DNA from: a virus
Lineage: Duplodnaviria > Caudoviricetes
DNA length: 59,944 bases
Strand: one strand, 5' to 3'
Virus record (IMG/VR): IMGVR_UViG_3300005525_000005
Coordinates: 1-59,944 of that record
In this document: one piece after another, positions 1-35,727 of the stretch
Numbering within the stretch: the stretch's first letter is position 1
How the letters are laid out: every line of letters starts with the position of its first letter
Notes under the pieces: model-generated
The model's database searches: none
Told to the model about the DNA's origin: nothing
Seen by the model: the letters and a program-made list of their open reading frames with translations, nothing else
Translations under genes and position numbers: made by a program

Positions 1-120
1 ACCACCAGCGTGAAGTCGCTATCGTCAAGGTCTTGAGCCGTAACTTGAGTGCCACGGGCATAGTTCTTGACAGCGATTTCAGGTTCCTTGATGATCTTCA
101 CCGAATCGCCCACATTGGCG
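1..120. repeat. Terminal direct repeat, copy 1 (circular assembly overlap)
   Basis: Identical to 59825-59944; falls inside the capsid ORF. Confidence 0.95.
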
Positions 121-263
121 ATTTCGCCAAAGTAGTCGTTGTTCGTGATAGCTTCAACAACGGAAGACTTACGGAAAGCAAGCTGAACTTGCTTGGAATA
201 GATAACCGGCGACCAGTTACCGTTAGGAAGATTGCCCCAACCCGGAGCAGCAGCAAATGCCAT
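1..263 (-). CDS. Major capsid protein, N-terminal part (continues into 59017-59944)
   Basis: ATG at 263 after AGGAG; reads MAFAAAPGWGNLPNGNWSPVIYSKQVQLAFRK...NNDYFGEIANVGDSVKIIKEPEI, in frame with the ORF at the window end. Confidence 0.92.
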   Translation of the reverse strand, partial: MAFAAAPGWGNLPNGNWSPVIYSKQVQLAFRKSSVVEAITNNDYFGEIANVGDSVKIIKEPEIAVKNYARGTQVTAQDLDDSDFTLV

Positions 264-12319: not shown

Positions 12320-12595
12320 CTATTTCTTCCTTCTATTAACAACACCCTCATACCAGCCTTCGGCACGCATCGCTTTTTCAACAAGAGGAAGGGGTATAAC
12401 AAATCCTGTATGCTTCTCTAATGCACTTCGTAAATAATAGACATCAGAATGAAACGCAACTGTCTTTACTTCTTCTCGTTGCTTAAAAACTTCCTTCATT
12501 GCTAACGAATAGTAGCTATGAGGAGGCTTATTAATTTTGTTCTTAAGTTCTTCTCGCGTTTGAAATGGCATTGAAATGGCTTTCTGATGAAACAT
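12320..12595 (-). CDS. Hypothetical protein, first gene of the late arm
   Basis: ORF with HSDVYYLRSALE motif; start uncertain. Confidence 0.6.
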   Translation of the reverse strand: MFHQKAISMPFQTREELKNKINKPPHSYYSLAMKEVFKQREEVKTVAFHSDVYYLRSALEKHTGFVIPLPLVEKAMRAEGWYEGVVNRRKK

Positions 12596-12849
12596 AGAGC
12601 TTCAACAAAAATACATTCTAAACAACTATGCATGTGTTGTCAACTATATAGCTATATAGATGTTATCGTTGCTATAGCGCTGATAGCGCTAATGAAATCG
12701 TTGATGTATCAACAAAATAAACAATGATGTATCAATGATTCCATCAGTGCAAATTAGAAAACGTTGACAAGTGTTAAGGATATTTTTAACTGATAGCGCT
12801 GATGTATATTCATTAATTACTTCAACACTATGTTATTACTATTGTGTAG

Positions 12850-13030
12850 ACGGACTTAGCCTTCCTGCTTAGTCCTTTACACAACATGGTTGCGACTCGG
12901 AAGCCTTTCGACATTAGGACGCTGCCTTCGCCATCCTGTTGCGCTGTTTCAATGTCTATCCCGCAGTAGCGCTTTAACGTCTTTGCAGACGCTGCCAGAT
13001 GCTGCCGTTATCCGTTCATCCGACAGCGCC
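12850..13030 (-). ncRNA. Candidate structured RNA / late leader
   Basis: Consecutive hairpins just downstream of a promoter; no credible ORF. Confidence 0.4.
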
Positions 13031-13060
13031 AGTTTTACACGCGGTGACATGTGTTGTCAA
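13031..13060 (-). promoter_or_regulatory. Leftward sigma70-like promoter
   Basis: TTGACA-18 bp-AAAACT. Confidence 0.5.
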
Positions 13061-13353
13061 GAGCTTTGGCAAAAATGATGTTGTTCCTAAGATCGTCAGT
13101 ATGCTGATGAAAGTGACATTGTCGTTGGAGCTGTGTTTGGATGGTGGCGTGTGGGGGAGACTATGTTAGTAGGCGCTAACATGTGTTAAAATACCTGTTC
13201 TGTGTGTCAGCGTGTATATAGTAGCGCTGCCACCCCCCAGTGGCCCACGCCCGCCCCCGTCATGCCAGCGCCTCACGCACAGCGCATCAGGCATGTGCGA
13301 TCACGCATAATGCGCTGCGTCATGTGATCACGTGTGTGTGGATTTCCTATAGA

Positions 13354-13366
13354 AATCAACAACTTA
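13354..13366 (+). promoter_or_regulatory. IHF consensus site
   Basis: AATCAAcaacTTA matches WATCAANNNNTTR. Confidence 0.45.
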
Positions 13367-13589
13367 GCTCTATGTCTATGACATAAACGAAATTGCCGTC
13401 AGACGGTGAAAATCGTTATATAAGTAGTCGCTTATATAAGCCTTCATCGAAGATGAAGAGACGATGTATGACATCAACCCCCATCACCCTACGTCACAAT
13501 GCACACCCCCTATGATGCGTGACATCATGCGCCTACACCGCATATACGCGCATGCACGGCAACGTAGTTGCCAATGAAGGACGACAAAG

Positions 13590-13679
13590 ACCCTACGTTT
13601 GACTCGGACATTAAAAGGTCGGCACAATGCATCCCATCGAAACAACGGCATCCCGCCGAGTCCTGAAAGGAAACATAGC
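13590..13679 (+). promoter_or_regulatory. Early promoter/leader cassette 1
   Basis: ACCCTACGT-TTGACT-18-CACAAT-GCATCCCATCG...TCCTGAAAGGAAAC. Confidence 0.75.
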
Positions 13680-13901
13680 ATGTGCAATCAAGTGGAAGTT
13701 ATCCGCATCGTCTTTCACGAAGTGAAAGGGGATGATGGCAAGTGGACGAAGACGAGCCGTGCGTTTATGAGCAATGCTGACGCAGTGCGTGAGATTGAAA
13801 CGCTGCAAGAGTTTGCAAAGCAAAGGCGCCCATTCATCCGTAAGGTGGTGCCTGAGCCTATGCTGACGGTGCTGTACCCGACACAAAACCCCTTCGCTTG
13901 A
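13680..13901 (+). CDS. Early hypothetical protein
   Basis: ATG after AAAGGAAAC RBS; 73 aa. Confidence 0.65.
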   Translation: MCNQVEVIRIVFHEVKGDDGKWTKTSRAFMSNADAVREIETLQEFAKQRRPFIRKVVPEPMLTVLYPTQNPFA

Positions 13902-13975
13902 CAGGGTTTTTCGTAAGCCCCGATAATGCATCCCATCGACGGCACAGTGTCATCGTCTTCCTGAAAGGAAACATC
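13888..13975 (+). promoter_or_regulatory. Early promoter/leader cassette 2
   Basis: ACCCCTTCGC-TTGACA-18-GATAAT-GCATCCCATCG...TTCCTGAAAGGAAAC. Confidence 0.75.
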
Positions 13976-14620
13976 ATGATCCGTATCAGCGTCACCAGCA
14001 AGCTTGATGGCAATCGCTCATGGAGCTTGCAAGCTCTCGACACTTGCCCCGGTAGCATCTCTGCCGCTGGTGTACTTGTAGATGCATGCTCTGGTTGCTA
14101 TGCAACGACGGGCAACTACCACTATCCCAACGTGAAGGAGCCACGCATTGCCAATCGTGAAGATTGGAAGCGTGATGCATGGGTTGATGACATGGTGGTT
14201 GCATTGGCGAAGGACAAGTTCTTTCGCTGGTTCGACAGTGGCGACATGTATGCTCTCGGCCTTGCCGAGAAAATCTATCAAGTGATGCAGCGTACACCAT
14301 TAACCCGCCATTGGTTGCCTACTCGCATGGCGAAGTTTGCCAAGTTTGCCGACGTCATCCGTAGGATGAAGGCGCTTGACAATGTGTCCGTTCGCTTTAG
14401 CAGCGACAGCATCGATGGTGTGTATGGTGCAGAACATGGCTCTGTCATTGTCCACGATGCTGAGTCTGCCCCTGAAGGTGTGTTTCTGTGCCGTGCTTAC
14501 GAGAACGATGGCAAGTGCAGCGGATGCCGTGCATGCTGGAACAAGGATGTGCCTGTCATTGCCTACCCTGCCCACGGTGCGAAGATGATGAAGGTGATTA
14601 GGTTGAGCGCCGTACACTGA
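13976..14620 (+). CDS. Gp88-like Cys-rich protein (radical-SAM-like)
   Basis: TCPG...ACSGCYA, FRWFDSGD, HWLPTR, CSGCRACW, YPAHG. Confidence 0.75.
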   Translation: MIRISVTSKLDGNRSWSLQALDTCPGSISAAGVLVDACSGCYATTGNYHYPNVKEPRIANREDWKRDAWVDDMVVALAKDKFFRWFDSGDMYALGLAEKIYQVMQRTPLTRHWLPTRMAKFAKFADVIRRMKALDNVSVRFSSDSIDGVYGAEHGSVIVHDAESAPEGVFLCRAYENDGKCSGCRACWNKDVPVIAYPAHGAKMMKVIRLSAVH

Positions 14621-14656
14621 ACGACGGAGGGGCTGTAAGCCCCACGTTTTCGAAAG

Positions 14657-14695
14657 ACCCTACGTTTGACAGGGCTTTTCGAAAGCGTCAATAAT
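14657..14695 (+). promoter_or_regulatory. Early promoter 3
   Basis: ACCCTACGT-TTGACA-18-AATAAT. Confidence 0.7.
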
Positions 14696-14701
14696 GTAAG
14701 C

Positions 14702-14843
14702 AATGCAGCACGATGCGAGTCGGTGAGAAGCTAGCCGGGTGATGCCGGGTTCCGACAGACACATCATGCTGAAGTGTGACGGAGCATGTAGGTTACATGT
14801 AACGTTGTGCGAAAGCTGACGGCAGAGTCGAAAGGCCCTGCAG
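14702..14843 (+). ncRNA. Candidate multi-stem ncRNA
   Basis: Nested helices between two promoters; no ORF or RBS. Confidence 0.55.
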
Positions 14844-14873
14844 TTGACTCGGGAAATGACATCGCCCTACAAT
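14844..14873 (+). promoter_or_regulatory. Early promoter 4
   Basis: TTGACT-18-TACAAT. Confidence 0.7.
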
Positions 14874-14903
14874 GGATGCCTCGGCAAGCCTCGGTTTGCC
14901 ATC

Positions 14904-14932
14904 GATGCGAAAGCGTCAACGCTCTTTAACAA
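14904..14932 (+). promoter_or_regulatory. boxB-boxA antitermination site
   Basis: GATGC-GAAA-GCGTC hairpin then CGCTCTTTAACAA (rrn boxA consensus GCTCTTTAACA). Confidence 0.7.
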
Positions 14933-15139
14933 CCCGCTGCTAGTGTCGGTGCATGTGACAGATGCACTATGGACTAGCGTGAATGATGCATACGTCAATG
15001 TGTCATGCACCATCACACATGGTGCTGAAAATGTGTGAGCTTCCCCGAGTGAGAGTGGGTGCTCTTGCGTTAGGGGGTTTTCTTCAGCGTTGCGAGTCAG
15101 CGCTGAACAAAGCAATGGCTTTTCCGAAAGGAAACAAAC

Positions 15140-15337
15140 ATGTGGAATAAGCAAGGCATGCAAGTGAAGGCAACGTATCACGGCAAGTATGTGTCGGGCG
15201 TTGTCACATCTAGCCGCGTCAAGTATGGCGGCACAGTGCAGCACACCATCTCCCTCAATGCACCTATCATGCTGCGTTGGCGCAGTGAGCCGGTGCATAC
15301 TGTTCTGGTTGACGACGACAACGTTGTCCTTTCCTGA
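15140..15337 (+). CDS. Early hypothetical protein
   Basis: RBS AAAGGAAAC; SRVKYGGTVQHT motif. Confidence 0.75.
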   Translation: MWNKQGMQVKATYHGKYVSGVVTSSRVKYGGTVQHTISLNAPIMLRWRSEPVHTVLVDDDNVVLS

Positions 15338-15348
15338 AAGGAAACATC

Positions 15349-15423
15349 ATGACATACACACTGCTTGTGCTATTCGCTCCCATCATTCTGATGGGCATCG
15401 CCATCATCATCGCTGGAGAATAA
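15349..15423 (+). CDS. 24-aa membrane peptide
   Basis: MTYTLLVLFAPIILMGIAIIIAGE after cassette RBS. Confidence 0.6.
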   Translation: MTYTLLVLFAPIILMGIAIIIAGE

Positions 15424-15461
15424 CCCCACGCTTTACTCGGCTTTGATAACGTCGATATAAT
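15421..15461 (+). promoter_or_regulatory. Early promoter 5
   Basis: TAACCCCACGC-TTTACT-18-TATAAT; near-identical to 15715-15755. Confidence 0.75.
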
Positions 15462-15498
15462 TGTCGGCATCACTTCCTCCTCACACAAAGGACACACC

Positions 15499-15717
15499 AT
15501 GTACATGAACGCAATGGTCACAGAATGCGACGTCACTGGTGCCCGTTATGATGCACCAGTTGCGGGTTCATATGCGGTAGCACGTGGTGCTACAGGGCGT
15601 TGGTGTGTAGTGCTTGCCTTCGGCCCAGAGGCAACAAAGCAACATGCTGGTAAGCTGTTGAGCGAAGACGATGTAAGAAACATCGTCGAAGCAAAGGGGG
15701 AATGGCTCGACTATTAA
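15499..15717 (+). CDS. Early hypothetical protein
   Basis: AAGGA RBS; bounded by two repeated cassettes. Confidence 0.7.
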   Translation: MYMNAMVTECDVTGARYDAPVAGSYAVARGATGRWCVVLAFGPEATKQHAGKLLSEDDVRNIVEAKGEWLDY

Positions 15718-15803
15718 CCCCACGCTTTACTCGGCTTTCACAACGTCGATATAATGCATCCCATCGGCAGCACTTCGCTGCTCTCTTCCTGAAAGGACAC
15801 AAC
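15715..15803 (+). promoter_or_regulatory. Early promoter/leader cassette 6
   Basis: TTTACT-18-TATAAT-GCATCCCATCG, GCAGC/GCTGC hairpin, TTCCTGAAAGGAC. Confidence 0.75.
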
Positions 15804-15983: not shown

Positions 15984-16010
15984 CCCTCCGCTTTCCTGAA
16001 AGGAAACACC

Positions 16011-35652: not shown

Positions 35653-35727
35653 GCCTCTGAAGCATTGTCAGTGATGTATCGGCTTTGTATCCCGAAGAAC
35701 AGGGCGCAAATCCCTGCGGAGGCACCA
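35653..35727 (+). tRNA. tRNA-Thr(UGU), non-canonical
   Basis: Acceptor GCCTCTG/CGGAGGC + ACCA, D arm GCAT/ATGT, anticodon loop TT-TGT-AT, T arm CAGGG/CCCTG. Confidence 0.75.

Follow-up and report, generated by a model that had tools for sequence, protein, structure and literature searches.

The window, by which we mean the whole stretch of DNA analysed here, is 59,944 bp long and is estimated to be a complete phage genome with direct terminal repeats. Its large open reading frames (ORFs) were assigned to families of portal/adaptor, tail fibre, DNA polymerase, primase-helicase, and ribonucleotide reductase proteins. The DNA polymerase is 54.7% and 53.7% identical to those of the nearest named phages, Limnohabitans phage DC31 and Curvibacter phage P26059A, respectively, which infect freshwater Comamonadaceae, and is nearer to that of an uncultured podovirus (MW202701.1, 65.9%). 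A rightward gene block spans approximately 11.7–35.7 kb, and its first few kilobases carry serial sigma-70-like promoters and short ORFs. The early promoters (13588–13628, 13885–13928, 14653–14696, 14830–14873, 15421–15461, and 15715–15755) have an extended motif in common, (C)GAAAGnCCC(t/c)aCg-TTGAC/TTTAC-GGG...CCC-TAtAAT, in which the upstream element is conserved and the spacer has the form GGG...CCC. A near-identical 16-nt word, TCCTGAAAGGAAACAT, is found 5' of six early genes (13661–13676, 13959–13974, 15122–15137, 15332–15347, 15787–15802, and 15994–16009) and recurs in related loci; by pairing of its TTCC and GGAA arms, the ribosome-binding site could be enclosed in a small hairpin.

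The region of interest has as its left neighbour a gene of the GP88/DUF7227 family (13898–14620, with the stop codon at 14618–14620). Just 3' of the stop codon, a + strand hairpin, GGGGC-TGTAA-GCCCC (14629–14643), forms the left edge of an inserted block, and an equivalent hairpin, TCCCCTTCGGGGGA, occupies the same place in other loci. The elements that follow keep one order: a promoter-like site (P3), a folded RNA (RNA1), a linker, a second promoter-like site (P4), a second folded RNA (RNA2), an intrinsic terminator, a further hairpin (H6), and the ribosome-binding motif of the next gene. P3 (14666–14695, + strand) is a near-consensus sigma-70-like site, TTGACA-18-AATAAT, with 11 of 12 matches and a predicted start near 14702, and P4 (14844–14873, + strand) reads TTGACT-18-TACAAT with 10 of 12 matches. 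A palindrome, TTTCGAAA, surrounds the -35 element of P3, with arms at 14644–61 and 14671–88.

Downstream, a 65-aa ORF (15140–15337, + strand) lies behind the ribosome-binding motif usual for this phage. It occurs inside the inserted block in the window and in locus L066 only, belongs to no Pfam or PHROG family, and returned no relatives when used as bait in viral contigs. It is followed by a gene for a tiny hydrophobic (membrane) peptide of approximately 24 aa (15350–15424, + strand). A gene for such a peptide is present in every locus (L046–L068), directly downstream of the module or one ORF later, and the peptides are of two sequence types, MTYTLLVLFAPIILMG... and M(E)YFFL...WLERDAF.

Homologues define a module of two RNAs

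A preliminary description had placed a multi-helix noncoding RNA at 14702–14843, between P3 and P4. Promoter-like sites do lie on both sides of this interval, and the + strand within 14702–14806 has no ORF that reaches 30 aa. When 14702–14843 was folded alone, the minimum free energy was -49.1 kcal/mol (z = -1.81), a value that 9 of 200 shuffled sequences equalled or bettered. Given this unremarkable single-sequence fold, the evidence beyond chance rests on homologues.

Using the GP88-family protein as bait, we collected 39 viral loci and searched them by blastn, by a whole-record DNA search, and with covariance models of the two RNAs (R1 and R2). None of these GP88-bearing loci contained RNA1 or RNA2, and only short matches at chance level were returned; a 41-nt match of 80% identity in L012/L013 was rejected as a homologue because it lies inside a + strand ORF. 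An exact 20-mer from hairpin 2 of RNA1 had no matches either, which is explained by the covariation of this hairpin. In contrast to these searches, an exact 20-mer from the centre of RNA1 retrieved four viral contigs, whose alignment revealed that conservation extends far beyond 14702–14843. With patterns from the downstream part, the total rose to 10 viral loci and 13 metagenome loci, that is, 23 loci in addition to the window. These 24 module copies include 22 unique ones, of which 20 bear RNA1. Most of the loci were retrieved by RNA2 patterns and a locus with RNA1 only could have been found just by the RNA1-centre 20-mer, so the constant presence of RNA2 is partly true by construction. All 20 unique modules with RNA1 retain the TTGACA of P3, and P4 is found throughout the 22 unique modules, the two without RNA1 among them.

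RNA1 is a conserved, folded noncoding RNA

The RNA1 core occupies 14698–14812 on the + strand, ends 3' in an invariant UGCGA, and is scored at 117 bits by model R1. It consists in essence of two stem-loop domains that are 2 nt apart. The first is closed by P1 (14706–16 with 14761–71, 11 pairs) and contains P2 (14719–22 with 14753–56) and P2a (14735–38 with 14745–48); the second is hairpin 2, with an outer helix at 14774–80/14804–10 and an inner helix at 14784–90/14794–800. In an alignment of 14 distinct sequences (A3), this structure has 33 pairs, of which 15 show changes on both sides; 91.3% of the cells are paired, and the covariation score is 0.278. Neither the percentage paired nor the covariation score was reached by any of 500 shuffles, and the number of covarying pairs was reached by one, whereas the count of further pair types was not above the shuffles (392 of 500 reached it). 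Sliding the pairing partners by 1–3 columns reduced the paired fraction to 18.8–39.3%. RNAalifold, applied independently, gave 30 pairs with 11 compensatory changes. The proposed multi-helix RNA is therefore borne out by covariation, and we conclude that RNA1 is a real, conserved, folded noncoding RNA.

Most of the covariation is borne by P1, a helix that the preliminary description had missed, with nine of its 11 pairs changed on both sides. P1 is also tolerant of mismatches, having 82.5% of its cells paired and two positions that are unpaired in 8 and 9 of the 14 sequences. P2 and P2a are invariant, so covariation neither supports nor refutes them. As for the pairings proposed earlier, CATGTA-GGT-TACATG corresponds to the covarying inner helix of hairpin 2 and CCGG/CCGG to P2a, and four of the five GTCGG/CCGAC pairs recur as P2, where their invariance leaves no test by covariation. 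The long-range pairing of GCACGATG (14708–15) with CGTTGTGC (14803–10) has to be abandoned: it was paired in 58.6% of cells, a level that 466 of 500 shuffles reach. The other three are not supported either: the two halves of ACAC/GTGT belong each to another supported helix (the 3' strand of P1 and the 5' strand of hairpin 2, respectively), TGCA/TGCA reaches into the variable linker, and GAC/GTC with the GAAA after it falls inside this linker. The linker (14813–14843, + strand) contains a small GAAA hairpin and is poorly alignable across loci. It serves at the same time as the P4 upstream element, because a motif that precedes P4, CGAAAGnCCCtac, also lies upstream of P3.

The mean column identity is 87% for RNA1 and 85% for RNA2, the homologues being close relatives, so the invariance of the loops may partly reflect a short divergence time.

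RNA1 is co-linear with RNA2 and its terminator

RNA1 was originally conceived as a stand-alone unit of 140 nt. It lacks its own terminator and runs co-linearly into a second and better conserved RNA. RNA2 (approximately 14876–15087, + strand; alignment A2) is scored at 160 bits in the window by model R2. From its 5' end, it contains a GAAA hairpin (14904–17), an invariant single-stranded GCUCUUUAA (14921–29), H1 (14940–77) with a GUGACAG loop and an invariant internal loop, H2 (14979–15013), and H3 (15014–37). It ends in an intrinsic terminator made of a GC-rich hairpin (15042–77) and a U-tract (15078–84), with GGGGG followed by UUUUCUU. RNAalifold on 20 sequences found 46 pairs in RNA2, 16 of them compensatory, with almost no broken cells. 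The stems hold the variation and 97 columns are invariant. The inner stem of the terminator covaries as well (GAGAG/CUCUU, GAAGC/GCUUU, GAGGA/UCCUU, and GAGGG/CCCUU) while the loops do not change. Among the 46 pairs, eight are predominantly G-U and would become A-C mismatches on the other strand, which establishes the + strand as the RNA. The fold energy is -143.2 kcal/mol for the + strand compared with -122.9 kcal/mol for the - strand, and the single-sequence value is only about 2 sd below that of shuffles.

Beyond the terminator lies the hairpin H6 (15083–15107, + strand; 15083–90 with 15100–07), whose 5' arm begins inside the U-tract, so that it can form in read-through transcripts only. 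In a covariation scan, H6 appeared as a run of 10 paired columns of which six covary, the most of any helix in the module. Since H6 covaries although it is located past the U-tract, the read-through RNA is under selection. No promoter-like site was called between the RNA2 terminator and the next ORF at 15140. An all-against-all column scan for pairing between RNA1 and RNA2 or for pseudoknots returned many candidates of 3–6 bp, for example 14743–48 with 14946–51, each with a single covarying pair and none convincing.

We considered whether the module could encode protein instead. Aligned copies of the RNAs differ by 1- and 2-nt indels. Most reading frames of RNA1 are closed by stops, and only 6 of its 14 sequences have an open antisense frame. 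In 18 of 19 sequences, an antisense frame runs through the RNA2 core without a stop; its phase differs in the window, whose 143-aa ORF (14867–15298, - strand) lies opposite RNA2, H6, and the 65-aa ORF. The variable columns in the antisense RNA2 frame are distributed over the three codon positions as 12/16/14, and the distinct codon changes are 31 nonsynonymous versus 8 synonymous. None of the overlapping ORFs, the 143-aa one included, matches a Pfam or PHROG family. On the grounds of the indels, the stops, the lack of an antisense coding signature, and the lack of family matches, a protein-coding gene on either strand was rejected.

The module is an accessory of one phage lineage

Similarity between loci begins just left of P3 and stops just right of H6, and the genes on either side differ. 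In L002, the closest relative of the window (GP88 protein 92% identical), the GP88 gene is followed directly by the membrane-peptide gene that lies at 15350 in the window, which shows that the window has an extra block of approximately 730 bp, all of it absent from L002. These observations agree with the preliminary view of the RNA as cassette cargo. Across the 22 unique modules, the ORF that comes next belongs to one of at least three unrelated kinds (the 65-aa ORF, a putative HTH-like ORF, and the tiny hydrophobic peptide). P3 and RNA1 are missing from L053 and L057, where RNA2 occurs without RNA1 and a protein-coding gene, recognized by its third-position variation, extends up to P4. RNA1 is thus an accessory 5' domain of the RNA1-RNA2 transcript, and it is the 5' half of a two-promoter RNA gene in some uncultured freshwater phages.

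RNA2 is present in one copy per genome in all four whole records searched with R2, and the window has no paralogue of RNA1 (the next-best R1 match, with filters off, reached 15.1 bits). A second R1 copy was found in L059 only. There, at 6–122 (-) and 150–230 (-), the second P3-RNA1 copy begins within an ORF that is intact in L048, and the junction falls at a short word, GGACGTCA, common to the ORF and the P3 upstream element. The junction looks like microhomology recombination or else an assembly chimera.

Outside these loci, two exact-pattern scans of 185,579 prokaryote genomes, which divergent copies would escape, found no copy. GenBank phages contained no match to 14600–15140, and for RNA2 just matches of at most 40 nt with E values of at least 0.2. 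The first 50 of the 54.8 kb of MW202701.1 gave no R1, R2, or Rfam match. RNA1-RNA2 is so far limited to one narrow phage lineage.

This lineage carries another structured RNA. In the window, a Betaproteobacteria-1 RNA (RF02932) is called by Rfam at 12895–13026 on the - strand with 68.8 bits. Its place is the divergent region where the leftward gene block gives way to the rightward one, and it has a 15-nt insertion after the first hairpin. The motif was found in 10 of the 11 large module-bearing loci scanned, as well as in L002 and L051, and in none of the 12 more distant GP88-bearing phages scanned. This distribution identifies the motif as a lineage trait and RNA1-RNA2 as an optional addition within the lineage that bears it.

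RNA1 and RNA2 in environmental RNA libraries

Parts of the stretch were found in five metatranscriptome runs, and contigs were examined from four of them, which come from four studies with no DNA run alongside. The contigs, one per run, correspond to 14715–15053, 14713–15039, 14696–14991, and 14702–14930, and are at least 99% identical to the window, without any differences from it being seen. Together they cover 14696–15053, and all four bridge P4. RNA1-RNA2 is therefore present as a continuous molecule in environmental RNA preparations, with carry-over of DNA as a possible source. The contigs reveal neither strand, true ends, nor abundance, so the position of the four left ends, each no more than about 15 nt from the start predicted for P3, is a weak hint at a 5' end. 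Contig cover is absent from 13015–14695 in three of the four runs and from 15054–15368 in all four, which says nothing on silence or termination. The same RNA runs cover the Betaproteobacteria-1 region (contigs 12400–13014). In addition, eight DNA runs labelled as fungus metagenome (2019; X4–X10 and X15) contained 55–96% of the sampled words from 14600–15200, from which we drew no inference.

Comparison with known RNAs

Scanning the whole window with Rfam 15 (4227 models) at the gathering score returned RF02932 and one tRNA only. The tRNA call (35653–35724, + strand) has 41.2 bits against a gathering score of 29, and ARAGORN found no tRNA or tmRNA gene anywhere in the window. At E ≤ 10, six matches were obtained over 12500–15600, none of which overlaps 14696–15110. 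Consistent with the earlier statement that the RNA fits no known class, neither RNA1 nor RNA2 is matched at the gathering score or at E ≤ 10. This holds for the ribozymes and riboswitches in Rfam, and C4/CI-type phage antisense RNAs and other catalogued phage small RNAs have no Rfam match in the window.

The Betaproteobacteria-1 RNA, itself an orphan, resembles RNA1-RNA2 in being a multi-hairpin RNA of more than 100 nt that is carried by the same phages and covered by RNA-library contigs. The two are nevertheless distinct: no match to the three-hairpin RF02932 consensus was found at 14696–15110 at E ≤ 10, and R1 scores the Betaproteobacteria-1 site at only 3.3 bits. That site is on the opposite strand approximately 1.7 kb away, and it is present in L002, which is without RNA1-RNA2. 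A short word shared by the two, GUCGG, was noted by eye only.

In position and shape, the only features compared, RNA1 recalls the put RNAs of phage HK022, which are cis-acting processive antitermination RNAs that act on the transcribing polymerase. Both have two stem-loop domains right after an early phage promoter and a terminator further on. Unlike put, RNA1 is approximately 115 nt long with a branched first domain, and RNA2 has its own conserved terminator.

RNA1-RNA2 can also be compared with GOLLD and ROOL, large orphan structured RNAs that are reported to occur often in phages and prophages (PMC5737381; 10.1101/2024.12.08.627333). Like these, RNA1-RNA2 is ornate, conserved, and carried by phages. 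GOLLD and ROOL are larger and often lie beside tRNAs, whereas RNA1-RNA2 has two dedicated promoters and a terminator. A 2023 survey of IMG/VR describes a DNAVirus_X set of 8,495 candidate structured RNAs of 29–151 nt (PMC10690425), which likewise relied on IMG/VR contigs and intergenic covariation, and RNA1 or parts of RNA2 may already be in that set without a name or function. We found no published text describing RNA1-RNA2, supplementary models aside. Given this and the absence of an Rfam family, we rate RNA1-RNA2 as a new, unnamed family of phage-borne orphan structured RNAs, in which the two-domain build with tandem promoters is unusual.

Possible functions of RNA1-RNA2

In the transcription scheme predicted from these elements, the host RNA polymerase would start at P3, proceed through RNA1, P4, and RNA2, and stop near 15087, giving a transcript of approximately 385 nt from P3, while P4 alone would give RNA2 of approximately 210 nt. 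RNA1 would then be the 5' domain of an early, abundantly made noncoding transcript of the phage, and, as RNA2 can occur without it, an optional add-on domain. Covariation is seen in the stems, whereas hardly any loop, internal loop, or junction varies, suggesting that the RNA probably acts through its three-dimensional shape. Our leading interpretation, which we hold tentatively, is that RNA1-RNA2 may be a trans-acting, protein-binding RNA of early infection. By pure inference, it might serve during host take-over as a decoy, sponge, or scaffold to which a protein of the host or the phage binds. The module could accordingly be described as a putative accessory cassette similar to a moron, possibly gained and lost in the early region.

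The main rival is a cis-acting leader, in which RNA1, RNA2, or both would determine how much of the P3 and P4 transcription continues beyond the RNA2 terminator into the downstream early genes, as a conditional terminator, a put-like processive antitermination RNA, or a protein-dependent attenuator. RNA1 and RNA2 each start right after a promoter, and the two closely spaced stem-loop domains of RNA1 would suit such a role. Because no promoter-like site follows the terminator, the next genes depend on read-through, and together with H6, which lies beyond the U-tract and yet is the most covarying helix (six of 10), this indicates that read-through transcripts matter. Against this rival, the genes downstream differ between loci. 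With at least three ORF types behind the 22 unique modules, a metabolite riboswitch serving a single gene function is disfavoured, and downstream genes of one pathway, as expected for a terminating riboswitch, were not found. Moreover, inspection by eye and the covariation scan, neither of them exhaustive, revealed no conserved antiterminator pairing to the 5' arm of the terminator, and the G-run candidate AUGGGC reads AUGGAC in the window. The interior of the terminator hairpin is also highly conserved except for compensatory changes in the stem, which is unusual for a mere expression platform. On balance, we consider a cis-acting leader possible but somewhat unlikely.

RNA2, with or without RNA1, could alternatively be a base-pairing small RNA that uses GCUCUUUAA or a loop to pair with host or phage mRNAs and alter their translation or stability. 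An invariant, unpaired 9-mer near the 5' end would be a natural seed, and chaperone-dependent small RNAs end, as RNA2 does, in a GC-rich hairpin and a U-tract. What makes this reading quite unlikely is that conservation is not confined to one seed, nearly every loop and junction being invariant, and that the complement of the 9-mer, TTAAAGAGC, is not enriched in the phage genome, where it occurs 18 times with at most one mismatch compared with 15.0 ± 3.8 expected.

An RNA that binds a ligand or cleaves itself, that is, a new riboswitch aptamer or a ribozyme as suggested in the preliminary description, would agree with the complex multi-helix fold and its invariant junctions. We regard it as very unlikely, given that no Rfam ribozyme or riboswitch is matched even at E ≤ 10, that the function of the downstream gene is not consistent, and that the RNA-library contigs run uninterrupted through both RNAs, with the reservation that assembled contigs could mask a cleavage site. 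It is hardly credible that the module is an element acting at the DNA level, such as a replication origin activated by tandem promoters like those at the primary origin of T7, or else a protein gene, decayed or overlapping, to which the open antisense frame over RNA2 would point. The G-U pairs are strand-specific, the antisense frame has neither a coding signature nor family matches, and the absence of the module from L002 and from the first 50 kb of MW202701.1 speaks against an essential origin.

A bolder version of the trans-acting, protein-binding reading is that RNA1-RNA2 is a putative RNA-only factor for host take-over or counter-defence, which we think unlikely in this specific form. The RNA of approximately 385 nt, made from two consensus promoters in the first minutes of infection, would capture or mimic a host component, for which a defence sensor, a nuclease, a chaperone, or a ribosomal ligand would be candidates, and RNA1 would serve as a swappable specificity domain.

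Implications for phage biology

An early phage region is commonly interpreted as a series of genes for small proteins. Here, two near-consensus promoters and approximately 400 nt are devoted to a folded noncoding RNA. That this RNA is conserved and at the same time dispensable in close relatives is a signature of an accessory function in the interaction with the host. The module is self-contained from its promoters to its terminator, and hence it can be moved into a laboratory host for direct testing. With RNA1-RNA2, a well-supported family joins the few structured RNAs known from phages, its support being covariation, defined promoters and terminator, and presence in RNA libraries; through it the orphan Betaproteobacteria-1 motif gains a genomic partner and a concrete phage context. 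If the take-over reading were true, RNA1-RNA2 and the co-resident Betaproteobacteria-1 RNA would constitute an RNA-based early programme for these phages.
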